From IMG/VR virus record IMGVR_UViG_3300032305_001540, positions 1 to 30,587 of that record: a stretch of 30,587 bases of DNA; one strand, written 5' to 3'. Made by a program: the position numbers and the translations under genes. This stretch comes from a virus (lineage: Duplodnaviria; Caudoviricetes). Positions 2,465-30,587 of this stretch are shown piece after piece (position 1 is the first letter of the stretch; each line of letters begins with the position of its first letter). The notes beneath the pieces were generated by a model that searched no databases, was not told where the DNA came from, and saw nothing but the letters and a program-made list of their open reading frames with translations.

Positions 2465-4624
2465 TCAAGCCTGTGGTTGAGCTTGCTGATTTTGTTGCGG
2501 ATTAATACCTTGCATCAGCATTTGCTGTCTCAAATCCGCAATCTTTTGGGCTGCGTAATCGTCCTGTTTAGCACGACTTGCAGCCTCTGTTTTTGCATCG
2601 TTCTCACGAATCTTCATCTCAGAACGCATCTGCTCAGCTTCAGGATCAAATGCAGGTTGCTTAGGAGCTTGTTGAGCTTCCATTTGCTGCTGTTGCATCT
2701 CCATCATCATTTGCTGCTGTTCTTGTTGCTTTGCCTGTTGATTAGCCAGGTGCTCTAGAATAGTGCCTGTTTCTGGCAACTGAAGCATACGTACAACCAG
2801 CGCGTTTGTTTCTGGATCTGCTGGATCACCGAACAATCCCATCTGCCGTAGAATCGAAATCTTCTGTATCTTTTGATCTGGGCTGTCTTCTTGCGTACTT
2901 CCTGGAACATACACAACACGATATTGACCACCATCACGGATTGCATCAAACGTAATCACACCCTGTTGAGCAGCAGCTCTTGGATTCATTTGATCATCAA
3001 CCGAACCAATGAATGGAGCTGCAGCAAATTGTTCTACAAGTGCAATCTCCCATTCTTTGATCTTGGCTGCACTTATTTCAATATCAGCTCTGATAAATGA
3101 GTGCTGTGTGTTATCTGCACGTTGTAGGAGTCTTACGGATTCAGCTGGCGTTCCTGCTTGTGCCATACCTTGACTAACATCGTGCAAACCCGCAATGTCT
3201 GCCATATCTTTTTCAAGTACTTGAAGGAATGGGAAAAGGTCAGCGCTAATGCCAGGAGCACGCATAATTTGAGGAGGACGGCTACCAGTGTCGTGATAAA
3301 CCTTTCGATAAATACGGTTCTTGTCATTGATATCATCACCAGTGACATTAAAAGCATCTGCACCAATACGAGCACGTCGTTCTACAACGACGTAATCTTT
3401 ATTCTTTTCCATCTGTTCAACGGCACGTGAGTAAACTCGGTTATACGTAAGTTGGAGATGGGTTAGGTCAAACCCTAAGCTGTGCCCGTATGGAGTGCCG
3501 GATCTAGGCTGCCATCGAAGAGGGATAAATGGGAATTCATCACGCTTTTCATAAGGCCATATACCAGCATAAAGAAGCTGATCATCCGATGTAACGATGT
3601 AACGACCTTTAGGATATTGGGATGTTGGTTTTTCCCAGTACTCATAAACAACGGCAGCCATACGGCGATGATCTGCAGCATTTAGCCTAGCTGACGTTGG
3701 TTGAGTCCATGCTTGACCAGCACCATTAGCACCTTCAAGGTATGCATCAACGTATCCAGCCGACTGACCTGTCAATGCATTAGCTTTGACTTTCTTTCCA
3801 GCTTCACCATAGTTATCTACAAACCAACCAAGTGGTTTAATACTTGCATGTATCATCCACCTAATGTGGTGATCAGTCTGTGCATGAGGATCAATGTAAA
3901 TATTGAAACAAGGAATGATTTCTTCTTCGACATCACCCATTGGCACTTTGTCATAACCAGTTATCTGGCCGTTCATATCGAAATACGGCATTACTTGTTC
4001 AGACTTGGCGTTCCAGTAGACTTTTACAAAAGATGTCCCAGTCACACATGCCCAGCGAACACGTTCTTTTAATTGTGTTTCACGATTAAATTTTCGCGTG
4101 AAGTGCCCACAAATAAAGTTTGCTTCGTCAGATGCTGCTTGGTCTCGTTCGTTAAATGACAACGGAACTGCTCGTGCATCTGGCCCAACCTGCGTCAATT
4201 TACCAACGACACCATCAATCAAAGGTCTCATCTTATTGATAGTTATGTACCGATTTGGCTCTTTATCGTCCTGTAGTGACGCCAGATTCCTAGCAGCTGA
4301 ATTTATTCGATACCATTGGCGTCCCTCGAAGAAGGCAAGTGCTTGCATCCATTCAAGTTCCATTTCGTATCGAGTGCGATACGACGCATCAAACTGCTCT
4401 TTGACAAATTTAGTAATGTCCTTGGCTTCGTCACTATCTTCGTCAGGAGATACTTTCCAATCCTGCTTCTCGTGATCTATGCCTAGTTTCTTTAGATCGT
4501 TGAGGAGTAGGCTTTCAATATCGAAACTGCCAGGCGTGCCCTTATTATCTGGCGTATTCATAGCCATAACTCTTGGTTGCTTTGCGCCACCCATCAGTTG
4601 TCCTAGTAAGTCTTGAATCGCCAT
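2465..4624 (-). CDS. Portal protein (P22-like, Gln-rich C-terminal barrel)
   Basis: ~719 aa after TerL. Motifs AFFEGRQW, ITINKMRPLID, VYEYW and EFPFIP, with a poly-Q helical tail. ATG at 4624 overlaps the upstream TGA. Confidence 0.9.
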   Translation of the reverse strand: MAIQDLLGQLMGGAKQPRVMAMNTPDNKGTPGSFDIESLLLNDLKKLGIDHEKQDWKVSPDEDSDEAKDITKFVKEQFDASYRTRYEMELEWMQALAFFEGRQWYRINSAARNLASLQDDKEPNRYITINKMRPLIDGVVGKLTQVGPDARAVPLSFNERDQAASDEANFICGHFTRKFNRETQLKERVRWACVTGTSFVKVYWNAKSEQVMPYFDMNGQITGYDKVPMGDVEEEIIPCFNIYIDPHAQTDHHIRWMIHASIKPLGWFVDNYGEAGKKVKANALTGQSAGYVDAYLEGANGAGQAWTQPTSARLNAADHRRMAAVVYEYWEKPTSQYPKGRYIVTSDDQLLYAGIWPYEKRDEFPFIPLRWQPRSGTPYGHSLGFDLTHLQLTYNRVYSRAVEQMEKNKDYVVVERRARIGADAFNVTGDDINDKNRIYRKVYHDTGSRPPQIMRAPGISADLFPFLQVLEKDMADIAGLHDVSQGMAQAGTPAESVRLLQRADNTQHSFIRADIEISAAKIKEWEIALVEQFAAAPFIGSVDDQMNPRAAAQQGVITFDAIRDGGQYRVVYVPGSTQEDSPDQKIQKISILRQMGLFGDPADPETNALVVRMLQLPETGTILEHLANQQAKQQEQQQMMMEMQQQQMEAQQAPKQPAFDPEAEQMRSEMKIRENDAKTEAASRAKQDDYAAQKIADLRQQMLMQGINPQQNQQAQPQA

Positions 4625-10247: not shown

Positions 10248-10559
10248 ATGGAAGAACCAAACCGCGATGGTATGTTTTTTGATGGCTATCAATGGCGATC
10301 AAAAGATGAAGCAGCAGATACAACATCTCAGAATGCATCTAACAGTCAACTTGACTACGAGTTAAGTCCACGTGAACTAGAGATTCTCAAGTCTATGTCT
10401 TCTAAGTTGACAGCCAAACAAATTGCTACAGGCCTTGGGATAAGCCACAGGACTGTCCAGTTCCACATGGACAGCATGTACTGGAAGCTTGGATGTAGTG
10501 GAGCAAAAGCACGTGACCAGGCAGTTGCTAAAGGGCGCAAAGTCGGAATCATTAAATAG
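10248..10559 (+). CDS. LuxR/GerE-family HTH transcription regulator
   Basis: LSPRELEILKSMSSKLTAKQIATGLGISHRTVQFHMDSMYWKLG matches the LuxR HTH consensus. SD AGGAGG. Confidence 0.88.
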   Translation: MEEPNRDGMFFDGYQWRSKDEAADTTSQNASNSQLDYELSPRELEILKSMSSKLTAKQIATGLGISHRTVQFHMDSMYWKLGCSGAKARDQAVAKGRKVGIIK

Positions 10560-11341: not shown

Positions 11342-11724
11342 TATGCGAATGGATCCTCGATGTCGTCTGTCGCGACTGGCGTTCGAGCTGGCTTGGATAC
11401 TTCGCCTTGCTCGGTTTTCCTGGAATCAAGCGGGTGCGCCTCATCAATAATGATCTCCCAGACCTTCCGCTTGGATCCATCTTGGGCGTCATACGAGCGT
11501 ACACGGAGGTTACCCATGATTGCGACCATCCGGCCCTTGTTCAAGTAAGTAGCAACAAAGTCGCCAGTCTTACCAAACGCCACACAGTCAAAGAAGTCCG
11601 TCTCTTTCTCACGGCCCTTACGATCTACTGCTATACGTACCTTGACAACACTAGTCGCACTTTGCGTATTCATAACTTCAGGATCTGCAACCAAGCGTCC
11701 CGTCAAAATAACCTTATTCAGCAT
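11341..11724 (-). CDS. ssb: Single-stranded DNA-binding protein
   Basis: MLNKVILTGRLVADPE N-terminus, OB-fold motifs (TDFFDCVAFGK, GNLRVRSY) and an acidic DDIEDPF tail. Confidence 0.93.
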   Translation of the reverse strand: MLNKVILTGRLVADPEVMNTQSATSVVKVRIAVDRKGREKETDFFDCVAFGKTGDFVATYLNKGRMVAIMGNLRVRSYDAQDGSKRKVWEIIIDEAHPLDSRKTEQGEVSKPARTPVATDDIEDPFA

Positions 11725-12052
11725 CCTTACCTCCTACATGCTTTGCATACCACTGTCCTGTAACTTCATTCTCAATATGCTCTTTCACATAGTTCAACAA
11801 GATGTTGTCTTCTGATCCGTGAGCACGAACAAGTTGCATACCAATCAAGTTTCCATGAAGCCACTTACGATCAACCTGCAAGATGTCTGCCATCTTATTG
11901 ATTGACTCTTCGTACGGCATTCGTTTACCGCTCATCCACATCGAAACGTTGGGTCGATCAACGCCCATCAGCTCGGCAAAATACTTCTGAGTCATACGTT
12001 GCTTGTCAAGCAAGTGATGCAAGAACGTACGTGGTGTGTATCCATTACTCAT
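11714..12052 (-). CDS. XRE/Cro-CI family HTH regulator
   Basis: MTQKYFAELMGVDRPNVSMWMSGKRMP HTH_3 pattern. SD AAGGAGG. Confidence 0.82.
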   Translation of the reverse strand: MSNGYTPRTFLHHLLDKQRMTQKYFAELMGVDRPNVSMWMSGKRMPYEESINKMADILQVDRKWLHGNLIGMQLVRAHGSEDNILLNYVKEHIENEVTGQWYAKHVGGKDAE

Positions 12053-15900: not shown

Positions 15901-15949
15901 TAATTACCTCCTTGACGCTACGCACGTAGGTATTGTATCGTAACTTAAT

Positions 15950-16112
15950 TGTGGGGTTGGTATTTTCTACGGTGGGAGAAGGAGTAGTTGGAGATGATCT
16001 TCTGTAGGGGTGGGGGACAATATATATAAATATAGGTATAGGGGGGATTGCCATGTGGGGGTGGGGAGGGAGGGGAGGGGGAGGGATAGCTGGAGGGGGA
16101 GGGGTATATATA
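15950..16112. other. G-tract / TA-alternating low-complexity junction between the divergent arms
   Basis: GGGGGTGGGGAGGGAGGGGAGGGGGAGGG and TATATATAAA runs; no credible gene. Confidence 0.7.
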
Positions 16113-16116
16113 AAAA

Positions 16117-16271
16117 GCATACGCACCATCCGTAGGTACTGCGCATTGTCTTACCCTCACGATCTACACCCCTCACGTAGGTATAGGTATGTGGTTATGG
16201 TGGTATGCGTGGTGTATTCCCTATGATTATGTCAAGGGTTGCACGGTGATGTAATCTTTAGACGTTGGAGG
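16117..16271 (+). repeat. Cassette-head repeat R1 (boxes, -10-like hexamer, leader hairpin, SD)
   Basis: CGTAGGTA, CGATCTACA-N7-CGTAGGTAT, TGGTTATGGTG-N19-TATGAT, GTC...GAC hairpin, GGAGG. Confidence 0.85.
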
Positions 16272-16279
16272 TATGCATC

Positions 16280-16552
16280 GTGCATATCACAAAGTTTGCC
16301 TGTATCGGGCATCGTTGCAAGGTGGTGCAATATCCACCACATGACTTCGCTATCCTTTATGTTGAAGGGTACGGTTCAACAGCGTACCGCAACTATTGGA
16401 CAACGCGTCAAGTTCGCTTGGCTGTGTCAATGGTGGTGTTCAAGGAATCGCTACGACGCTCAGCACAGGCGGTAGCGCCAAGTTGCCCCGAGTGCGGTCG
16501 CGGAACCTTTGACGGTCGCGACTGTCATGAGTGCGGATACTTCACGCACTAA
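16280..16552 (+). CDS. Small protein with a C-terminal zinc ribbon
   Basis: GTG 8 nt after GGAGG; CPECG...CHECG. Confidence 0.7.
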   Translation: MHITKFACIGHRCKVVQYPPHDFAILYVEGYGSTAYRNYWTTRQVRLAVSMVVFKESLRRSAQAVAPSCPECGRGTFDGRDCHECGYFTH

Positions 16553-16606
16553 TCGTAAACCAGAGGGCGGTGACAGCGCCCTCACTTTATGGAAAGGAAA
16601 AACAAT

Positions 16607-16747
16607 ATGCAAAAACAAAAATCTTTTGGCCGACGGCTCTTTGGATGCGTCATGCTAGTTGCAACAGTTATCTGCATCTGGTCAGGCTATTCTGTTATAG
16701 CACCGGTGTTCCTTGGTGCGATAGGCATTTCTGCCTTAATCGACTAA
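16607..16747 (+). CDS. Small membrane protein (46 aa, two hydrophobic segments)
   Basis: Read by hand: MQKQKSFGRRLFGCVMLVATVICIWSGYSVIAPVFLGAIGISALID. SD GAAAGGA. Confidence 0.65.
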   Translation: MQKQKSFGRRLFGCVMLVATVICIWSGYSVIAPVFLGAIGISALID

Positions 16748-16754
16748 TCACAAT

Positions 16755-16789
16755 AGGGGAGCGCAGCTAGACTGCGCGATGATCCTTTT
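16755..16789 (+). terminator. Kink-turn-containing hairpin with a U tail, copy 1
   Basis: AGGG-GA-GCGCAG-CTAGA-CTGCGC-GAT-GA-TCCT-TTT. Confidence 0.6.
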
Positions 16790-16792
16790 AGT

Positions 16793-16952
16793 GCACCACA
16801 CACACCCTCCGCAGGTACAGGTATGTGTTATATGGCCACTCGATTTACATGCCACTCGTAGGTATGTGTCTATAGTTGTGGTGGCATCGGTGCGATATTC
16901 CCTATAATTATGTCAAGCGTTGCACATCGATGTAACGTTTAGACGGTGGAGG
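16793..16952 (+). repeat. Cassette-head repeat R2
   Basis: CGCAGGTA, CGATTTACA-N7-CGTAGGTAT, TAGTTGTGGTG-N19-TATAAT, leader hairpin, GGAGG. Confidence 0.85.
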
Positions 16953-16960
16953 TATGCATC

Positions 16961-17278
16961 ATGCATACATTAGAATCTCGCATCATGGGGTGCGACACGT
17001 TGATACGGTTTGACGGCAACACGGTTGCCGTTGAGCCTGATTCCTGCGAAGGAATCACCGCTACATCGGACATCACGCTAGATGACTTATACCATCTAGT
17101 GCGCAACCAAATATGGGCGATGCAGTATCGTCATCGCATATGGTTGCAAACCCGCGTGATTCCATGCGAGGGATGCGGACGTGACAAGAATCACGACACG
17201 TCGGCTTGCTCGTGTCCGGGATGCGCGTCATTCCGCGAACCGATGCCGTGCCAGTTTGAATGCCGGTGCGGTAAATAA
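16961..17278 (+). CDS. Small Cys-rich protein
   Basis: ATG 8 nt after GGAGG; CEGC...CSCPGC...CQFECRC. Confidence 0.7.
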   Translation: MHTLESRIMGCDTLIRFDGNTVAVEPDSCEGITATSDITLDDLYHLVRNQIWAMQYRHRIWLQTRVIPCEGCGRDKNHDTSACSCPGCASFREPMPCQFECRCGK

Positions 17279-17327
17279 TCGTAGGCTCGGGGCGGTGACA
17301 GCGCCCCGTTTGACTTTGGAGGTATGT

Positions 17328-17573
17328 ATGAAACCATTTGACGACTTCCGGGATTTCCACCCGGTACCCGGCGTTTGCACGCCCGGACATTACTTTGCAT
17401 CACCTGACGGAAAGCGGACGGTGATGCTAACTATCACGAATAGTCGTGATGGAGTGTACGCTTTTGTTGATGTGACAATCAACGGTGAACACACTCGAGT
17501 TCACGGCGAAGATGCATATTATGACTGGAAAGGCTCACGACCTTTACCAGGCCATAAAAACGGCTGGTACTAA
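17328..17573 (+). CDS. Hypothetical protein
   Basis: ATG after GGAGG (MKPFDDFRDF...). Confidence 0.7.
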   Translation: MKPFDDFRDFHPVPGVCTPGHYFASPDGKRTVMLTITNSRDGVYAFVDVTINGEHTRVHGEDAYYDWKGSRPLPGHKNGWY

Positions 17574-17578
17574 ACCAA

Positions 17579-17614
17579 AAGGGGGAGCGCAGCTAGACTG
17601 CGCGACGATCCCTT
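17579..17614 (+). terminator. Kink-turn-containing hairpin, copy 2
   Basis: AAGGGG-GA-GCGCAG-CTAGA-CTGCGC-GAC-GA-TCCCTT; weak U tail. Confidence 0.55.
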
Positions 17615-17620
17615 GTCAGA

Positions 17621-17757
17621 GCACACACTCGCCCCGCTGGTACGAGCATGTATAGCAACGTCGCGAACTACATGCAACTCGTAGGTATGTGTGTTTAGTT
17701 ATGGTGATACTGCTACGGTATTACCTATATAGATGTAGTCAGAGGAGGCTACAACGT
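17621..17757 (+). repeat. Cassette-head repeat R3
   Basis: CGCTGGTA, CGAACTACA-N7-CGTAGGTAT, TAGTTATGGTG-N19-TATATA, SD-loop hairpin. Confidence 0.85.
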
Positions 17758-18261
17758 ATGGTTATAATCCTTGCACTGCTATGCGCAGTGTTCGCTATTC
17801 TCGGTGGACTCGCGTTCATCGAAGTTCGCTCCTTGCAGTACAGACTGCAAGAAAAGCAAGGGCATTACGACGAGGCTATTATTGCCTTAGACGTATACCG
17901 TGCACGTGTCGAATTGCACAACAAACGTATCGAGTTCTACCGCACCAGCAACAACGTTGCATCTGAGTGTGTGGGCACACTGTCGAAGATGGACACGCTT
18001 CATCGTGGACGGATAGCGGAACTTACGAAAGAACTCAATGATTACAAGTTACATGCAAAGGTAGCACAGGAACTCATTGAGCGACAGACGTTTATCCTTG
18101 ACAAGCGCACCGATGAACTAAAGGTACTACGGTCGCAGTTCAACGAACACGAACTGTTGAAGCAAAAGCACGATGAACTGGTGATTAAACACCAGTTAAT
18201 CATCGATTCATTGCCTGACTGGGCCGGCGGTGAAGTCATCGACGACGAGGACGAGGACTAA
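17758..18261 (+). CDS. Membrane-anchored coiled-coil protein with an acidic tail
   Basis: N-terminal TM segment (MVIILALLCAVFAILGGLAFI), heptad-rich body, DDEDED end. Confidence 0.75.
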   Translation: MVIILALLCAVFAILGGLAFIEVRSLQYRLQEKQGHYDEAIIALDVYRARVELHNKRIEFYRTSNNVASECVGTLSKMDTLHRGRIAELTKELNDYKLHAKVAQELIERQTFILDKRTDELKVLRSQFNEHELLKQKHDELVIKHQLIIDSLPDWAGGEVIDDEDED

Positions 18262-18263
18262 AC

Positions 18264-18289
18264 GGAGGGGCTTCGGCCCCTCCACTTTT
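18264..18289 (+). terminator. Intrinsic terminator, cUUCGg loop
   Basis: GGAGGGGC-TTCG-GCCCCTCC followed by ACTTTT. Confidence 0.85.
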
Positions 18290-18299
18290 CTTGATCAGA

Positions 18300-18453
18300 G
18301 CACATACACGCCCCGCTGGTACATGTATGTTGTGCCACCTCGCGATTTACACCCACCTCGTAAGTATGTGTGTTAGTTATGGTGATACTGCTACGGTATT
18401 CCCTATGTTTATGTCAAGCGGTACACATTGATGTATACGTTTAGACATGGAGG
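18300..18453 (+). repeat. Cassette-head repeat R4
   Basis: CGCTGGTA, CGATTTACA-N7-CGTAAGTAT, TAGTTATGGTG-N19-TATGTT, leader hairpin, GGAGG. Confidence 0.85.
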
Positions 18454-18461
18454 CAATAACG

Positions 18462-18632
18462 ATGAGATTCGTTATCGCTATCGCTATCGCGATACTCGGC
18501 ACTATCCACGGACTCGTTTCCGTTTGCAACGCTATCAATACCGGTACAACATTCTGGTACGTGAGTTTTCTCACAAGCGTCTTCGTAGTCATCTGCGCGT
18601 CCGGTTATGTGGAAACAGAGTCCAAACCGTAG
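18462..18632 (+). CDS. Small two-TM membrane protein
   Basis: ATG 8 nt after GGAGG; two hydrophobic segments. Confidence 0.7.
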   Translation: MRFVIAIAIAILGTIHGLVSVCNAINTGTTFWYVSFLTSVFVVICASGYVETESKP

Positions 18633-18677
18633 TCACGTGCCCTGCTGGTGGGGCGAAACACCAGCAAGGAGTATGTT

Positions 18678-19034
18678 ATGAACAAGCCTAGTATCCCGGT
18701 GTTTTCACACCTTTATTACGACTATGGATGCATTGCATCACTGTTACTGACATTCCAATGTCATGACAAAGAATTCAGTGTTGATTGTATCCCAGCACAT
18801 GCACGTTACTACCAATGCAATGAGCACGGCATTGCTGTGTACGATGATGACTTTAGAATCCTCAAGGTAGCGCCTATGCAGTCCTACTTCTTGCACAGTT
18901 ATGAAACAGGCATGAAGGTGGAGCGATTCTTCTTGATGCATGTTTACGACAACAATCTGTTGCGTCTTATCCAGCAATCAAAGATGACTCCGCTTGTGAC
19001 GGAAAACTCAACAGCGATACCACGATATCACTGA
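18678..19034 (+). CDS. Hypothetical protein
   Basis: ATG after AAGGAG (MNKPSIPV...). Confidence 0.7.
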   Translation: MNKPSIPVFSHLYYDYGCIASLLLTFQCHDKEFSVDCIPAHARYYQCNEHGIAVYDDDFRILKVAPMQSYFLHSYETGMKVERFFLMHVYDNNLLRLIQQSKMTPLVTENSTAIPRYH

Positions 19035-19037
19035 CAC

Positions 19038-19064
19038 GGAGGGGCTTCGGCCCCTCCACCTTTT
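19038..19064 (+). terminator. Intrinsic terminator, cUUCGg loop
   Basis: GGAGGGGC-TTCG-GCCCCTCC followed by ACCTTTT. Confidence 0.85.
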
Positions 19065-19071
19065 GCTGATC

Positions 19072-19230
19072 AAACCACACACGCGCCCCGCTGGTATGCG
19101 TATGATTTAGCTGCCTCACGATTTACACGCCTCACGTAGGTATAGGTGGGTAGTTATGGTGGCGATTGTGCCGTATTGCCTATGATTATGTCAAGCGTTG
19201 CACGTTGATGTAACCGCTTAGACACGGAGG
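19072..19230 (+). repeat. Cassette-head repeat R5
   Basis: CGCTGGTA, CGATTTACA-N7-CGTAGGTAT, TAGTTATGGTG-N19-TATGAT, leader hairpin, GGAGG. Confidence 0.85.
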
Positions 19231-19238
19231 TATTCCAC

Positions 19239-19865
19239 GTGGAATACGATTACCTGACGGAGCGCTTTGGCGCCTCCCGTCCTACGTCATATGACCGTTC
19301 ACACGGCAGTTTTGCGAACGCTGAGCCACACAAAGATTGGTTTGTAGTGCTCGGGCAGAATCGCGACAGTGACGCGCTCGCAAAGTCAAACTTTGAGTGC
19401 GCTACCGATATCCTCAAAGCATGGGGAGACAGCGCGTACACCATTCATCGCTTCGGTCACTGGGGCTGCGGATGGTATGAAGTGCTCATTGTAAATAATG
19501 AGGATGAAAACGCGTGCGGTGACGCTGAAAGTTTGCTTCGTGCACTCGCTGATTATCCTGTAGTGAACGATGAGCACTACAGCGCCAAACAATGCGAGGA
19601 AGGCGAATGCGAGTGCGATTGTTGCCCAAAAGACTGGTGCGATTGCGATTCATGCAAGAAAGCACGCGGTGCTGACGACGACGACGAAGACGGGGATATC
19701 ACCCTCGACGACGACGACGACGACGACATACCAGTCAAGAACGTGGAGCGCAACCAACCATGTCCTAAGTGTGGGCAACCATGCAAACTGACGTCGCTCC
19801 AAGTGCTGGTCGGGTACTCATGCGACCGGTGTATGTACGGGGATAGCAACGACCCCGGGTACTAA
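19239..19865 (+). CDS. Acidic, Cys-rich phage protein
   Basis: GTG 8 nt after GGAGG; FGHWGCGWYE and LADYPVVNDE motifs, a Cys cluster, poly-Asp and CPKC...CDRC. Confidence 0.78.
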   Translation: MEYDYLTERFGASRPTSYDRSHGSFANAEPHKDWFVVLGQNRDSDALAKSNFECATDILKAWGDSAYTIHRFGHWGCGWYEVLIVNNEDENACGDAESLLRALADYPVVNDEHYSAKQCEEGECECDCCPKDWCDCDSCKKARGADDDDEDGDITLDDDDDDDIPVKNVERNQPCPKCGQPCKLTSLQVLVGYSCDRCMYGDSNDPGY

Positions 19866-19868
19866 CAC

Positions 19869-19894
19869 GGAGGGGCTTCGGCCCCTCCTCTTTT
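19869..19894 (+). terminator. UUCG hairpin inside cassette 5
   Basis: GGAGGGGC-TTCG-GCCCCTCC followed by TCTTTT, then directly by an SD. Confidence 0.7.
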
Positions 19895-19908
19895 GAAAGG
19901 ATAGAACA

Positions 19909-20151
19909 ATGAAGAATCAAGACCTCAGCCATGAAATATGGCTACACTACGGCGACGACATGCAAGAGGAAGTTATGGAGAATAAACAACCCATAACGGC
20001 GCAACGATGCGAAGACATTATCTGGGAAGACTTTGAACCTTCCCTCAATGTAATCAGCGGTGCACTCCACAGCATCTTTGCGAGCGTAATCGTAAACGAT
20101 GTGGACTGGGACTACATCGCGAGAATGGTTAACCTCTGCCTGGAGGACTGA
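19909..20151 (+). CDS. Small acidic protein
   Basis: 80 aa, SD GAAAGGA, VDWDYIA motif. Confidence 0.72.
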   Translation: MKNQDLSHEIWLHYGDDMQEEVMENKQPITAQRCEDIIWEDFEPSLNVISGALHSIFASVIVNDVDWDYIARMVNLCLED

Positions 20152-20155
20152 CAAC

Positions 20156-20181
20156 GAGGGGCTTCGGCCCCTCACTTTTTT
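20156..20181 (+). terminator. Intrinsic terminator, cUUCGg loop
   Basis: GAGGGGC-TTCG-GCCCCTC followed by ACTTTTTT. Confidence 0.85.
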
Positions 20182-20189
20182 GATCTGAA

Positions 20190-20324
20190 GCACACGCACA
20201 CCTCGCTGGTATGTACATGTTTCTATTGCCCCACGATTTACAAGCCCCTCGTAGGTATATGTATTAGTTATGGTGCTAGTCTTTGTGCATTCCCTATATA
20301 GATGTAGTCAAGGAGGCTACAACC
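20190..20324 (+). repeat. Cassette-head repeat R6
   Basis: CGCTGGTA, CGATTTACA-N7-CGTAGGTAT, TAGTTATGGTG-N19-TATATA, SD-loop hairpin. Confidence 0.85.
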
Positions 20325-20672
20325 ATGCAGAAACTTATATCTGAGCAGTACAAGGTTATGACCTTGGGCATGCTCATTGACGCAATCGAGATATGCCTTC
20401 CCGCATCTCTCGGCACCGTGTGCCTCAACACGTCTGAGGTATACGACATCTATACCGAGGTGTGCGATGTTACCGTCGATGGCAACCATATGGGAACCAT
20501 CGTTTCCCTCGAGCATACTATTGAGATGTTCGAGCATGCAGATGTAGCACACGAAATGTGGATGTTGCACAACATCCCGCACAATGACTGGCACCTTGCC
20601 ATGACAAAACTGCGTGAAGTATGGAAGATGACCGCAGACCCCAACGCATGGTGCGTTCTCGTTACTGGCTAG
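20325..20672 (+). CDS. Hypothetical protein
   Basis: ATG after AAGGAGG (MQKLISEQY...). Confidence 0.72.
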   Translation: MQKLISEQYKVMTLGMLIDAIEICLPASLGTVCLNTSEVYDIYTEVCDVTVDGNHMGTIVSLEHTIEMFEHADVAHEMWMLHNIPHNDWHLAMTKLREVWKMTADPNAWCVLVTG

Positions 20673-20675
20673 TGT

Positions 20676-20701
20676 GAAGGGGCTTCGGCCCCTTCCTTTT
20701 T
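20676..20701 (+). terminator. UUCG hairpin inside cassette 6
   Basis: GAAGGGGC-TTCG-GCCCCTTC followed by CTTTTT, then directly by GGAGG. Confidence 0.7.
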
Positions 20702-20715
20702 GAATGGAGGAAGAC

Positions 20716-21135
20716 ATGACAGAAGCACAGAAGAAGGTATACGATTCCTTCGTAGTATCGGCTAAGGCATGGTTTGAGATGGAGGCTAAGCGCCTTGAAT
20801 GGACAACCATGAAGAACATCTCTAATCTATGCAAAACATACCTTGCATCGTTTGTAGAGGATGTAGAGGATGGCATCACATGTGTTGATAACAGATTGGT
20901 GCTTGAACTTGGCGTCTTTCATGACTGTTCACGCACACCGACAACAGCATGTGATGGGTGTAGTGAGGTAGAAAGCATCTTCTACTGCATCAGCACCGAC
21001 AGTGACAGCAACGAGCTGTTGCAAGAATGGGAAGCATTGTTCAATGATGACCCATCACCATTCATGCCGGACTGCTTCCGGTGGGATGGGGACAACACAG
21101 ACCCGGACATGCCGGAGGACGAGGACGAAGACTAA
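20716..21135 (+). CDS. Acidic hypothetical protein
   Basis: ATG after GGAGG (MTEAQKK...); ends EDEDED. Confidence 0.72.
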   Translation: MTEAQKKVYDSFVVSAKAWFEMEAKRLEWTTMKNISNLCKTYLASFVEDVEDGITCVDNRLVLELGVFHDCSRTPTTACDGCSEVESIFYCISTDSDSNELLQEWEALFNDDPSPFMPDCFRWDGDNTDPDMPEDEDED

Positions 21136-21137
21136 AT

Positions 21138-21163
21138 GAGGGGAGGCGAAAGCCTCCTCTTTT
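21138..21163 (+). terminator. Intrinsic terminator, GAAA loop
   Basis: GAGGGGAGGC-GAAA-GCCTCCTCTT followed by TT. Confidence 0.8.
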
Positions 21164-21174
21164 CTGTTTTAACA

Positions 21175-21311
21175 GACCCCATGCACGCCTCGCTAGTATG
21201 CACATGGTTGCAGCAGCTCGTGATTTACAGCGCACTCGTAGGTATGGGTATTAGTTATGGTGGCACGTGTTGCGGATTCTATATAACAGTGTTACTAGGA
21301 GGTAACAAAAC
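21175..21311 (+). repeat. Cassette-head repeat R7
   Basis: CGCTAGTA, TGATTTACA-N7-CGTAGGTAT, TAGTTATGGTG-N19-TATAAC, SD-loop hairpin. Confidence 0.85.
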
Positions 21312-21803
21312 ATGGTTAAGTTTCTTATAGCTCTCGCAGAGCTTTTCTCGTCATTCAGCGCCAAGCTTCACGATATGTCGAACGACATAGAGGAGCCAGA
21401 AGCACCTTCCATTGACATCCACGACCACAAGCGCGACATTATTGACATCGTGCAACGCGCTATTAATCGTGGCAACATCGAACTCGGTGATAATAATGTA
21501 TCTACCGATGACATCGATGGGCTGGAAGATTACGTAATGGGTTGCATTCCAGACCCGGAAGAAGCGATTGGTCGCATACTGCGTTTCCGACAGCTTCGCG
21601 ACGTTGTTTTAGATTACGCGACAATGTACGGGCATCATCGCGGTATCAGTCTTACTCGCGAAACTGCACTCCTGAACCAGTACATGCTGGATAGGATTAC
21701 AGCGTGGACGAATGAGCAGACGCATGGCGAGCACGACACGCCTTGTCCTGCTACGCTTAAACTCTCGGACGGGACAACTGTCAGAGAGTTTCGTAATCAC
21801 TAA
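21312..21803 (+). CDS. Acidic hypothetical protein
   Basis: 163 aa, SD AGGAGG. Confidence 0.75.
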   Translation: MVKFLIALAELFSSFSAKLHDMSNDIEEPEAPSIDIHDHKRDIIDIVQRAINRGNIELGDNNVSTDDIDGLEDYVMGCIPDPEEAIGRILRFRQLRDVVLDYATMYGHHRGISLTRETALLNQYMLDRITAWTNEQTHGEHDTPCPATLKLSDGTTVREFRNH

Positions 21804-21806
21804 CAC

Positions 21807-21835
21807 GGTGGGGGCTTCGGCTCCCACCTTTTTTT
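21807..21835 (+). terminator. Intrinsic terminator, cUUCGg loop
   Basis: GGTGGGGGC-TTCG-GCTCCCACC followed by T7. Confidence 0.88.
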
Positions 21836-21844
21836 GTGCTTGGC

Positions 21845-21973
21845 GCACCTCACGCACGCCCCGCTGGTATGTGCTAGTTATGCCACCTCGTGATCTACAC
21901 GCCACACGTAGGTATAGGTGTTAGTTATGGTGCTACCGTGCGCGGATTCTATATTATGTTGGAGGTAAACAGT
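21845..21973 (+). repeat. Cassette-head repeat R8
   Basis: CGCTGGTA, TGATCTACA-N7-CGTAGGTAT, TAGTTATGGTG-N19-TATTAT, GGAGG. Confidence 0.85.
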
Positions 21974-22804
21974 ATGAAACTGGTTACAAAGAACGGCACC
22001 AATGCCGTGAACACCGTGCTTGCTTGGGTAGGCACATCCCCCATCGACGGCGAAACCATCGGTTTGTTTGTTACGGGTCTCAAAAAGACTAACACGCCAA
22101 ACACAAAGACCGATGACATGGTGCAGACATATATCCTGCGCCTTGACATGCATCCCCAAGAAGCGCTCAAGCTTGGCATGGATGCAACCATCTGCGGGGA
22201 TTGTCCACACCGGTACCAAATGCGTACCCGCGTCCGTCGCACCAAACGCGGACAATTGAAGGTAGAAACCAAGCGTGTGCGCACGTGCTACGTTCGCGTT
22301 TCCAACGCGCCGGGTAGCATCTTCGGTGCCTTCATGCGTGGTAACGTCCCAACGGTCTCCCTTGACGTTGTCAATGCAATGGTATTGCGTGCCGATAAAC
22401 CGGTGCGCATGGGCGCCTATGGTGATCCTGCCATGGTTCCTGCCGATGTGTGGGATGCTATCCTTCACAAGGTATCCGCATGGACGGGATACACGCACCA
22501 ATGGCGTCAAGCTTGGTCGCATGGTCTTATTGGACGCGTTATGGCGTCATGCGACAATGCGCAGGATAAGGCGGACGCTATCGCGATGGGATGGCAGGGT
22601 ACATTTACCGTGCTACCGCATGATGACTTTGAGACGCATTTCAAGTCGTTGCGTGGTACGCGTTCATGTCCATCCGATCCACGCTTCAAGGACATAATGG
22701 ACTTGGTTCCATGTGCGTCCTGCAAGGCGTGTATGGGAACGCAACACCGCGCTATCCGGTCGCACGGTAGCACAGGGTTGTGGGTCACACTCAACACAGT
22801 GTGA
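21974..22804 (+). CDS. GP88-like Cys-motif protein (putative metal/Fe-S enzyme)
   Basis: NTKT..MVQTYIL, ICGDCP, CYV, RMGAYGDP, GYTHQW, MASCD, CP..CxxCxxC..HG. Family recalled, not searched. Confidence 0.62.
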   Translation: MKLVTKNGTNAVNTVLAWVGTSPIDGETIGLFVTGLKKTNTPNTKTDDMVQTYILRLDMHPQEALKLGMDATICGDCPHRYQMRTRVRRTKRGQLKVETKRVRTCYVRVSNAPGSIFGAFMRGNVPTVSLDVVNAMVLRADKPVRMGAYGDPAMVPADVWDAILHKVSAWTGYTHQWRQAWSHGLIGRVMASCDNAQDKADAIAMGWQGTFTVLPHDDFETHFKSLRGTRSCPSDPRFKDIMDLVPCASCKACMGTQHRAIRSHGSTGLWVTLNTV

Positions 22805-22810
22805 TCCAAC

Positions 22811-22846
22811 GGGCGGGGGCTTCGGCCTCCGCCCAAACGCCTTTTT
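22811..22846 (+). terminator. UUCG hairpin/terminator
   Basis: GGGCGGGGGC-TTCG-GCCTCCGCCC with a delayed T5. Confidence 0.65.
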
Positions 22847-22847
22847 G

Positions 22848-22969
22848 GCACCCCACGCACGCCCCGCTGGTAATGCATGGATGTAGGGTTATCGATTACT
22901 AACGATCTTACACACACACGTAGGTATGTGACTATAGTTGTGGTCTGGGCGCTACGGTGTTGCATATCA
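22848..22969 (+). repeat. Cassette-head repeat R9 (divergent; no SD or gene follows)
   Basis: CGCTGGTA, CGATCTTACA-N6-CGTAGGTAT, TAGTTGTGGTC-N19-TATCAG. Confidence 0.75.
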
Positions 22970-23073
22970 GGGGGAGGGTGCAGAATCTGCGGGGTTACCC
23001 CTGCGTTTTCTGCGGGGTAGGGGTGCAGAATCTGCGGGGTACCCAAAAGGGGAGGGTGCAGAATCTGCGGGGT
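22970..23073. repeat. Iteron-like cluster
   Basis: GGGTGCAGAATCTGCGGGGT exact at 22976, 23021 and 23054, plus a related inverted copy at 22997-23018. Confidence 0.85.
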
Positions 23074-23290
23074 AGGTAGTTGGTAAGTATTGTTAATGTA
23101 GGACTGCTGGAGAGGCAAGCCCATCCAGACAAACAAAACCAGCCTATGCCGTCCTTAAATTCCCTCAAAAAGCGCCTTTTGCCTAGTCACTGGGCGTTAT
23201 CTCGTCGATCGTTGCGTTGTCCTGTGTATGGTCAACGTGGAAGCGCACAGGATGTATTGTGCGTATAGTTTCCCTTGAGGAGTATTAGCA

Positions 23291-25605: not shown

Positions 25606-25713
25606 ATTTATTATCGCCACATGTCACATCCTGTGCCTCGTGGGCGATAATATTAGTGTAGTTGTTCGAGTGCCCTGCTGGTGGGGCGAATCACCAGCAT
25701 GGAGGATATCACT

Positions 25714-26131: not shown

Positions 26132-26161
26132 GCCCTCCTGCCTCGGCAGGGGGGCATTTTT
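26132..26161 (+). terminator. Intrinsic terminator
   Basis: GCCCTCCTGC-CTCG-GCAGGGGGGC followed by ATTTTT. Confidence 0.8.
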
Positions 26162-26210
26162 GCAAACCACACGCAGGGCACGCAGGTACACCCACTAGAC
26201 TGGAGAGATT

Positions 26211-27793: not shown

Positions 27794-28448
27794 TTGGTTT
27801 TTTACTGTTGACCACGACCCTCGTGGCATGTGCTATGTCGCTGAAGGCGAAGACGGAAGCACACTTATTGCCGGTACAGGACAACACGATTGCGTGTTTG
27901 TAGCTGACACGCCTGAGCTGCTCTTGCAGCTGGTCGAAAAAATCCGTGGATTCTCAGATGAAAGCATCATTGCTCGTCCCATCACTTGGTCAAGCCTTGG
28001 ACAATGCTTCCGCATGATTGTGTATCGCAACAAGATGCGCTTGTTGATGGGCGGTAAAGGATGGATTGCTTCGTCACTGACATACACTCCATCGACGAAG
28101 TCGAAGCTCATCTGTGACCCACAGACAACAGTCGTAACAGCTGAGTATAAAGGCGAATGGATCACGCACGACCAAGCCATTATCGTTGGCACGTCACTCG
28201 AAGATTTGTTCACCAACCTGTCTAGATGCGAAGTCAACGTCGATACATACAAGGACATGGACAATCTCAAATTTGTCGTGTACCCACTACTTAAGTTTGC
28301 AGATGGTGGAACTGTGTATTACCATGGCGTTACGCACAACGTTCAAGAAGCCCTCATGAATAACTATGGCTTTGTGACCGAGGTGCTCGGAGGCGATGAA
28401 GAAGACAAGCTCATCGCCAAATTGGAGGAGGAACCAAATGAAGATTGA
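27768..28448 (+). CDS. Hypothetical protein
   Basis: Long ORF; TTG 27768 after GGAG preferred, start uncertain. Confidence 0.65.
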   Translation: MNATPLEVDWFFTVDHDPRGMCYVAEGEDGSTLIAGTGQHDCVFVADTPELLLQLVEKIRGFSDESIIARPITWSSLGQCFRMIVYRNKMRLLMGGKGWIASSLTYTPSTKSKLICDPQTTVVTAEYKGEWITHDQAIIVGTSLEDLFTNLSRCEVNVDTYKDMDNLKFVVYPLLKFADGGTVYYHGVTHNVQEALMNNYGFVTEVLGGDEEDKLIAKLEEEPNED

Positions 28449-29061
28449 AGACCACTTGGTCAAAATGAAAGGGGGCAAGCTTTATGCCCCCGTGTACGTC
28501 AGGATTGCACTATTCCGTGAAGACCATCCCGTTGCTGACGGGTGGGGAATCAACGCTGAAGTCATCAACACAGATGAGTCATCCTGCTTGGCACGTGCTG
28601 AGATTGTTGACCCACAAGGACGCGTTGTATCTACAGGTCACAAACGTGAGCACAAAGCACACTTCCCAGACTTTGAAGAAAAGGCATTGACCGGTGCTGT
28701 TGGACGCGCACTACTCATGGCCGGGTACGGCACACAATACGCGCTTGACGAACTGGATGAGGGTGAACGCATCGTTGACGCACCAATCCCAGGCACCATG
28801 CAGATGAACGCTACACCAACTGTCACGAAGTCTGATCCACAGGTTGAGTACAAGCTTGCTGCAACCAACTTCATGAACGAATGCAAGCGTATCCTCGGCC
28901 CGGACATCGTGCCAGCTGACGCTAAGTCTGTGTACGCTCGGATGTTTGGCACAGAGACGATGACTACTGACAACCTCAAGACTGCATTGGTTCGCATGAA
29001 CGAATACGCAGACCTTGAAGCAGATCGGTTTGCTGCAGATCTTCTGGAGGACGAAGACTAA
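28438..29061 (+). CDS. Rad52-like single-strand annealing protein (recombinase)
   Basis: GKLYAPVYVRIALFREDHP...EKALTGAVGRAL..AGYGTQ. SD GGAGG; sits in the recombination module. Confidence 0.62.
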   Translation: MKIEDHLVKMKGGKLYAPVYVRIALFREDHPVADGWGINAEVINTDESSCLARAEIVDPQGRVVSTGHKREHKAHFPDFEEKALTGAVGRALLMAGYGTQYALDELDEGERIVDAPIPGTMQMNATPTVTKSDPQVEYKLAATNFMNECKRILGPDIVPADAKSVYARMFGTETMTTDNLKTALVRMNEYADLEADRFAADLLEDED

Positions 29062-30200: not shown

Positions 30201-30587
30201 ATGATTGGTATGTTCAAAGGGTCTCACGTTACACAACGGAGACTAGACAAGGGGTTCGTGGTACTTCACCACGAACTTCTTCCGTTTTTGAAGGACTTTA
30301 GCGGATCAGAATGGTTAGTCCTAACTGCACTCGCGTTACGTGCTGACGAAACTGGCTACAGTTACCCCTCTATTTCGACCATACGCGAGGATACTGGCCT
30401 AAGTGAACGAGTAGTCCAGCAATCTATCAAAAGCCTCTCTATGGTCACGACAGAGCGTAAATACACGGTCATTCGTGTTGATACTCGGCACGTTGATAAC
30501 GGTCGTCGCACTACAAACGGGTACATCATCATGCCTGATGGCTTTGGAGAGGGTGCAGAAAACACAGGGGGGGAGGGTGCAGAAAAC
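30201..30587 (+). CDS. Replication initiator with an N-terminal winged HTH (HTH_36-like), truncated by the window edge
   Basis: Not in the ORF track. MIGMFKG...ADETGYSYPSISTIREDTGLSERVVQQSIKSL..., followed by internal direct repeats. Confidence 0.75.
   Translation, partial: MIGMFKGSHVTQRRLDKGFVVLHHELLPFLKDFSGSEWLVLTALALRADETGYSYPSISTIREDTGLSERVVQQSIKSLSMVTTERKYTVIRVDTRHVDNGRRTTNGYIIMPDGFGEGAENTGGEGAEN
30549..30587 (+). repeat. Iterons inside the initiator gene (probable origin)
   Basis: GAGGGTGCAGAAAAC at 30549 and 30573 (24-bp period), a lambda O-like arrangement. Confidence 0.65.

Follow-up and report, generated by a model that had tools for sequence, protein, structure and literature searches.

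We describe here an array of nine copies of an intergenic element, R1 to R9, in a 30,587-nucleotide stretch of DNA from a phage of the class Caudoviricetes (IMG/VR record IMGVR_UViG_3300032305_001540, positions 1 to 30,587; this whole stretch is referred to as the window), where the elements separate units of one or two small genes. We consider it probable, although well short of certain, that in each module a terminator-like hairpin ends the preceding gene unit, that transcription would then restart at a promoter requiring a protein bound to two CGYHRGTA boxes, and that the element copies would let homologous recombination add, drop and reorder gene units. This reading builds on the layout of the array, the conservation of the boxes and their spacing, the varied leader hairpins, the reordering confined to the array and a protein of the Sak/Rad52 fold, all of which are observations. 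The elements are located as follows.

16114..16227, + strand: element R1, with a CA tract, box1 at 16131, box2 at 16176, a third box at 16192 and TATGAT at 16222.
16793..16908, + strand: element R2.
17618..17731, + strand: element R3, then a short hairpin with GGAGG in its loop.
18297..18409, + strand: element R4.
19072..19186, + strand: element R5.
20187..20300, + strand: element R6.
21174..21287, + strand: element R7.
21845..21957, + strand: element R8, with the end of its TAT hexamer 3 nt before GGAGG.
22848..22970, + strand: terminal element R9, with a box gap of 54, no nearby open reading frame (ORF), heading the downstream operon.

Each element is 113-123 bp long, with a C/A-rich upstream part that carries the two boxes. 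The first (box1, CGYWRGTA) starts at 16131, 16810, 17635, 18314, 19089, 20204, 21191, 21862 and 22865, and the second (box2, CGTARGTAT) follows 45-47 bp after it, or 54 in R9. The nine elements lie where an initial annotation made from the sequence alone had placed them, with the box gaps it gave, and neither the full pattern nor the two-box pattern occurs in 200 dinucleotide shuffles of the window on either strand. The longer consensus proposed around box2, YGAWYTACA-N7-CGTARGTAT, fits eight of the nine elements, with R9 carrying one extra base. The geometry of a third box, TRGTTRTGGTS, followed by exactly 19 bp and TAT, is true of all nine elements in the window but does not extend to the family, since only 2 of 73 copies from relatives contain it.

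Pattern and protein searches identified six viral contigs with an array of 8-10 copies, in addition to two further, more distant viral contigs with an array, one of which holds 9 copies. At least eight other viral contigs, and many fragments from metagenomes, have the array in the same position, and matches to the element occur in 37 of 38 metagenome loci, many of them redundant. Loci L010-L013 are 100% identical to the window and were excluded as independent examples, L221 and L234 duplicate the phage of L017, and L207 was rejected as an array carrier because its match is a chance one. From 238 copies collected, 82 were kept as non-redundant (less than 80% alike), and in 78 of these the box gap is 44-48 bp while the spacer letters vary, which agrees with the earlier view that the spacers diverge in sequence with their lengths held. 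The stretch GAWYTRCA-N7-CGYHRGTAT is kept in 63 of the 73 copies from relatives, and the third box in 3. Only the two boxes, an AT-rich run and the leader hairpin persist family-wide; the family feature is the two boxes, with the downstream core private to each lineage. The last element in L293 (record G014) contains three boxes in a row, not two. Outside the clade, the element was found in none of the 158 other loci picked by two shared genes (160 scanned, 2 positive), and its pattern has no match in GTDB genomes. Copies in the same genome agree in lineage-specific letters, most strongly downstream of box2, and in their core letters they are far more alike than copies fronting the same cargo in different genomes. 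These shared letters could be due to selection by a co-evolving factor or to gene conversion, and the weaker lineage signal in the inter-box spacers leans to selection.

GGAGG and an ORF follow R1-R8, i.e., eight of the nine elements, but not R9, and a strong hairpin with a U run precedes R4-R8, where 0 of 200 shuffles fold equally well. Variant hairpins precede R2, R3 and R9 (those of R2 and R3 are different and interrupted, and that of R9 lacks an adjacent U run), and none precedes R1, which follows a G-rich tract. The description of every unit as an autonomous cassette closed by a hairpin is therefore accurate for the ribosome site and gene after R1-R8, and needs amending for the hairpins of R1, R2, R3 and R9. 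Representative hairpins on the two sides of the element are the following.

18264..18290, + strand: intrinsic-terminator-like hairpin and U run, with similar ones at 19038, 20156, 21138 and 21807.
16229..16265, + strand: long leader hairpin ahead of GGAGG, with the same class after R2 (16910), R4 (18411) and R5 (19188).

Long leaders contain a longer hairpin, predicted at -12 to -14 kcal/mol, ahead of the ribosome site. In short leaders, 37 of 46 have an anchor stem that loops out the ribosome site, with 18 distinct arm pairs, compared with 2 of 20 control genes. The leader hairpin, which the initial annotation had not noted, opens at a conserved RTGT. We read the module as a likely promoter because a hairpin with a U run must precede a restart, and because a ribosome site lies directly after it. 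Judged by its sequence, the leader hairpin reads as the 5′ end of the message, with a start at about RTGT. If transcription begins at or just before RTGT, box2 would lie around -50 and box1 around -95, positions at which activators bind. The cargo genes would be early or middle genes. Alternatively, the TAT hexamer may be the -10, in which case the hairpin would hide the ribosome site just in messages that arise by read-through. The hexamer of R8, so close to GGAGG, fits poorly with TAT as a -10 and favours a start farther upstream. A sigma-70 scan of the window gave 20 sites, against 15.0 +/- 4.2 expected, which is no enrichment, and among the + strand TAT hexamers of the elements it matched that of R2 alone; this, and the lack of any TTGACA-like box in the elements, bears out the earlier statement that there is no TTGACA-like -35.

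Our comparison of relatives demonstrated that cassette content and order change within the array. For example, 7 of 112 gene-family pairs across 24 contigs occur in both orders (f2/f3, f1/f2 and f1/f21 among them), and in eight genomes order conflicts involve 6 of 430 pairs in the array versus 0 of 1095 in the flanks. L222 and L231 lack the whole unit f9, which one contig contains, and in the f2/f3 swap the letters surrounding box2 move with the downstream gene, with terminators moving with either neighbour. Identity among five close relatives is 94% for the intergenic blocks and 83% for the cargo genes, and of the 21 sequence switch points between close relatives, 14 are intragenic. The suggestion that the element may act as a cassette-shuffling site is therefore upheld as far as content and order are concerned, but not in the sense of a dedicated site. 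The initial annotation had seen no integrase in the window, and this can be extended, as neither a tyrosine nor a serine recombinase was found in the five array-bearing records (three of them at least 90% complete); PF00589, the tyrosine integrase family, matched 0 of 5 records, with 14 of 14 controls recovered, and none of the 51 window proteins. It had also pointed to a Rad52-like protein, which has a Rad52/Sak-type fold by model and structure search.

28438..29061, + strand: single-strand annealing protein of the Sak/Rad52 fold (AlphaFold model), candidate recombinase.

The model of this protein has a predicted local distance difference test score (pLDDT) of 76, and its top Foldseek matches are RAD52, 80alpha Sak and Mgm101 (E 8.5e-4 to 4e-3); the protein has no Pfam or PDB sequence match. 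Rad52-like proteins act on diverged DNA. Switch points within genes, the lack of an integrase and the Sak/Rad52-fold protein together indicate that the units are probably shuffled by homologous recombination of the ordinary kind, in which the modules provide the sole homology between non-allelic positions, and the Sak-type protein would make the crossovers.

The same gene-cassette layout and reordering are in keeping with the element being a site-specific recombination site, an attC-like folded single-strand element or a structured RNA, and the arms flanking box1 pair slightly better with their own partner than with others (z about -3, with kinship not corrected). Integron attC arrays likewise consist of small unrelated genes separated by a repeat, in variable order. 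Unlike these, the present array has no integrase and no hairpin fold of the element, and each unit has a terminator and a likely promoter. No integrase or resolvase was found in 5 of 5 records, most switch points lie within genes, and on neither strand is the predicted fold of the element more stable than that of shuffles (mean minimum free energy z of -0.03 and +0.26 for the two strands, 41 copies). At gathering score, Rfam matches neither the window nor the element of relatives, and gave only a tRNA in six other loci. We therefore rejected a structured RNA or attC fold, and regard this group of explanations as very improbable.

A promoter with invariant boxes but a lineage-specific core raises the question of which protein reads it, and the window encodes two candidates.

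10248..10559, + strand: stand-alone LuxR/GerE helix-turn-helix protein (Pfam GerE, E 3e-13), candidate box-binding factor.
11714..12052, - strand: XRE-family helix-turn-helix protein (Pfam HTH_3, E 2e-9), second candidate factor.

The recognition helix of the LuxR/GerE protein is nearly invariant among relatives, and the helix of the XRE protein differs between two lineages. Of the LuxR/GerE protein, the XRE protein and a host factor, we tentatively take the first as the likeliest reader of the invariant box letters, an assignment that is possible but doubtful. Single box1-like words are enriched in five relatives that lack the array (6 matches of at least 15 bits versus 0.1 in shuffles), and the terminases of the array-less relatives bearing the LuxR gene are 67-74% identical. 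In record G007, a LuxR protein 94% identical to that of the window lies at the record end (L261, 352-660), in a record without the element whose terminase is only 67% identical; this similarity may be due to recent gene transfer or to a chimeric contig.

Two lone boxes outside the nine elements bear on a different role for such a protein.

15921..15933, + strand: box2 word CACGTAGGTAT, standing alone upstream of the operon that runs leftward.
26132..26189, + strand: hairpin, then a stand-alone box1 (26164-26189, a tenth copy consisting of box1 only), about 20 nt ahead of the next start codon.

The word at 15921 or its CGTAAGTAT form is present in 7 of 7 genomes compared, with GGTAGGTAT/GCAGGTAT in L272/L273, and the 26132 hairpin with its box1 is in the same place in L017, L018 and L227; the initial annotation had missed this tenth copy. 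The stoperators of mycobacteriophages are repressor operators with one orientation, and the boxes here could be operators of this kind, bound by a phage repressor that silences host-polymerase promoters after the first minutes. CGYHRGTA words across the array region number 19 on the + strand versus 1 on the - strand, which suits a single orientation, as the conserved lone boxes and the two helix-turn-helix genes kept by the clade suit a repressor. However, a distance of 50-100 bp separates the boxes from the likely start downstream, more than steric repression would lead one to expect, and no strong host promoter in need of repression is visible, making this explanation unlikely.

A further alternative places the reader of the boxes in the virion. 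The array-bearing phages would inject, within a putative virion protein of 4,000-4,800 residues, a specificity factor for host RNA polymerase, possibly a degenerate sigma-like stretch, that reads the twin-box promoters; the boxes, cores and factor would drift together, with the cassettes reshuffled by Sak. For example, record G011 contains a giant ORF of 4,388 residues (L290:15121 to L291:9287), which has no Pfam match over cut-off and no PHROG or PDB match; near its C-terminus is a stretch that, we presume, recalls the ADP-ribosyltransferase-like domains of large polyvalent proteins. A virion RNA polymerase in this ORF was rejected, as it has no conserved catalytic motif. Consistent with a sigma-like reader are elements without a host consensus, core letters that shift jointly per lineage, the fast-evolving middle of the giant protein (28-54% between relatives) and motifs in it that, by eye, are ordered and spaced like sigma regions 2, 3.2 and 4. 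This middle was detected in 5 of 5 array-bearing records (in three weakly, E 3e-5 to 9e-3) and in 0 of 5 giant ORFs of array-less relatives, and when global alignment was forced, the piece resembling region 4 outscored 61 of 62 control pieces and the one resembling region 2 outscored 29 of 31. Against this, the stretch has no Pfam sigma match even at E 5 and no PDB sequence match, and profile comparison (hhalign) with 11 sigma-70 proteins gave E 0.15, with other stretches doing at least as well. For its low-confidence AlphaFold model (pLDDT 61, predicted template modelling score 0.36, 10 sequences), Foldseek gave no match at E 0.001, and the matches listed include no sigma factor. The giant ORF lacks any conserved RNA polymerase motif, its role as a virion protein is deduced from size and position only, and sigma-70 region 2 was found in none of the five array-bearing records. 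No precedent for a virion-borne sigma factor at phage early promoters was found in the literature searched, and we regard this alternative as distinctly unlikely.

Several findings weigh against the reading of the elements as factor-dependent promoters that enable shuffling. The presumed promoter core is not conserved between lineages, so that no -10 or -35 can be named. Relatives in the family that keep the LuxR gene, with a near-identical helix, contain the two-box element in 0 of 10 records, several of which are incomplete. On the side of shuffling, the six order conflicts reduce to about two events, and elements are crossed by 7 of the 21 switch points, a share close to the roughly 23% of columns they fill, with pairs that are not independent. 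Among the contigs of run X1, no circle-closing joint of two elements is listed at the depth of the phage. In addition, the conserved stand-alone box1 after the 26132 hairpin leaves little room for a promoter, and terminator-like hairpins also occur within two-gene units (17288, 19869 and 20676) with no element behind them, and some read-through or processing must therefore occur.

These internal hairpins, and a box1 directly 3′ of a hairpin, would suit an array expressed as a single long transcript from an upstream promoter, with hairpins that process or stabilise it and boxes that load an antitermination or RNA-binding factor. The phages at L163 (1520-7886) and L144 (14717-18088), which repeat a hairpin and ribosome site for each small gene with few sigma-70-like promoters, also favour it. 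However, the terminators of the array precede the boxes, the spacers keep a fixed length, as is usual where proteins bind DNA, and every copy ends in an AT-rich run ahead of the leader hairpin, and we consider a single long transcript quite improbable. The restart of transcription at each twin-box module remains our preferred reading.

We compared the array with repeated modules of other phages; the element was not found described in the literature searched, chiefly freely available main text. In T4-type phages, PeSL (promoter-early stem-loop) cassettes place a ~100-bp intergenic module, consisting of a stem-loop terminator, a promoter and a ribosome site, before small orphan genes in a variable region where relatives differ by genes gained, lost and moved at the modules (PMC2839356, PMC4122927), and promoter, terminator and mini-circles have been tested (PMC2839356). 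Our array shares the ~100-bp repeated module fronting orphan genes in a variable region, a stem-loop able to terminate (predicted here), a 3′ end that carries the ribosome site and the start codon (8 of 9) and cargo gain, loss and displacement between relatives, here with allelic switch points inside genes as well. It differs in that the -35/-10 consensus of sigma-70 and an AT-rich upstream part are both absent, in the two CGYHRGTA boxes 44-48 bp apart with a lineage-specific core, and in that its 8-10 units form a single compact array, in a 60-kb phage whose portal is P22-like and whose capsid is phrog_212, i.e., not a T4-type phage. The claim of an undescribed system was therefore too strong with respect to layout, which is that of PeSL cassettes (PMC2839356, PMC4122927); the module would work like PeSL, yet is not filed as PeSL, because the sigma-70 and AT-rich features fail and the phage is not T4-type.

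Activator-box versions of such cassettes exist, as the PmSL cassettes of Vibrio phage nt-1 have a Mot box and a -10 (PMC4122927). Like these, our modules combine a terminator with a promoter predicted to rely on an activator box in place of a -35, but their two boxes lie far upstream, with no TGCTT Mot box and no constant -10, and no MotA-type gene was identified. The 41-nt promoter repeats of PAK_P1-like Pseudomonas phages (5-6 copies) are, like our elements, clade-specific and intergenic in a variable, putative early region, whereas they are conserved base for base around TTGACA-N17-TAgAAT, a consensus absent here, where spacers vary (PMC4309531). The class I intergenic repeats of halovirus HF2 lie among early/middle genes, are genus-conserved and have been shown to be promoters; unlike this array, they are archaeal, 58 bp long and spread over 49 kb, and the portion of the source considered describes no terminator-plus-twin-box layout (PMC8707807). 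The portion of PMC4791379 considered adds nothing to the comparison.

The cargo of the eight gene-bearing units is as follows.

16280..16747, + strand: unit 1, 90-residue and 46-residue ORFs; no PHROG match and one weak, sub-cutoff Pfam match.
16961..17573, + strand: unit 2, 105-residue and 81-residue ORFs; internal hairpin at 17288-17308.
17758..18261, + strand: unit 3, 167-residue ORF with a hydrophobic N-terminus (family f12).
18462..19034, + strand: unit 4, 56-residue and 118-residue ORFs.
19239..20151, + strand: unit 5, 208-residue and 80-residue ORFs; internal hairpin at 19869-19888.
20325..21135, + strand: unit 6, f2 (115 residues) and f3 (139 residues); both orders occur among relatives.
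21312..21803, + strand: unit 7, family f1 (163 residues).
21974..22804, + strand: unit 8, 276-residue phrog_2554 protein with a DUF7227/GP88-like lead.

No array cargo has a Pfam match over cut-off and only one PHROG, of unknown function, is matched; the phrog_2554 protein is the last cargo in every complete array where it was detected. The SPO1 host-takeover module is a cluster of small genes of unknown functions, probably first expressed, in a terminal repeat; our array is alike in being a small-gene cluster, and no protein family common to both was found. The f3 protein at L018 8390-9022 has a cysteine-rich tail like that of the 208-residue protein of the window, which may indicate that cargo genes have exchanged domains. 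The window contains two copies of a 38-nt hairpin leader, at 18637-18674 and 25670-25707, which are 92% alike and stand before unrelated genes. In L170, four intergenic repeats with CTGATGAG...GAAA cores lie directly before genes on the - strand (932-1006, 1251-1336, 2162-2246 and 3845-3908); they have a hammerhead-ribozyme-like look and are under Rfam gathering scores.

The window represents about half of a ~60-kb phage, with capsid (phrog_212), P22-like portal and terminase genes on the minus strand to the left, a Mu Gam-like gene and replication initiator on the plus strand to the right, and the array beginning where gene direction flips. Two features mark its borders.

16020..16105, + strand: G-rich tract with a conserved GGMTTGCCAY word, bordering the array on the left and seen in all 9 left flanks compared.
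22971..23073, + strand: three GGGTGCAGAA repeats, similar to repeats inside the replication-initiator gene (30545-30587).

At the left border, the independent contigs L210, L211, L215, L224 and L244 stop within 16020..16105 (+ strand), 27-42 bp before box1 of R1, which may be a genome end or a sequencing drop-out. Repeats like GGGTGCAGAA follow the last element in L017, L018, L219, L227 and L235, and not in three contigs of the other lineage; from their sequence and placement, they are possible initiator-binding sites at the head of the initiator's own operon. In run X1, from which the window may derive, the contig over 18473-21812 has a mean depth of 33.5, versus 19.4-21.4 for the contigs on either side, and a terminal repeat, a packaging start or a block common to a second phage may each account for this step. 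Among the matches listed from 50,697 phage records there is no cultured close relative of the phage, and the sole blastn match of 16000-23100 is a 103-bp piece of the 276-residue gene. The capsid protein of the window matches only Paenibacillus phages, at 22% identity, and SSB matches and LuxR searches gave no host lead.

These findings extend PeSL-type cassette shuffling to a clade of small, non-T4 phages, and provide direct comparative evidence, with a flank control included, of reordering limited to the array. The more unusual side is regulation, i.e., 8-10 modules in each genome that resemble promoters yet lack a host consensus and have two invariant boxes, and a core that changes jointly in all copies of a lineage, which raises the question of which protein reads the modules. 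The 82 distinct natural variants amount to a ready mutational scan of the element. Were an injected sigma-like module the reader, early transcription in phages would have a route not described before.

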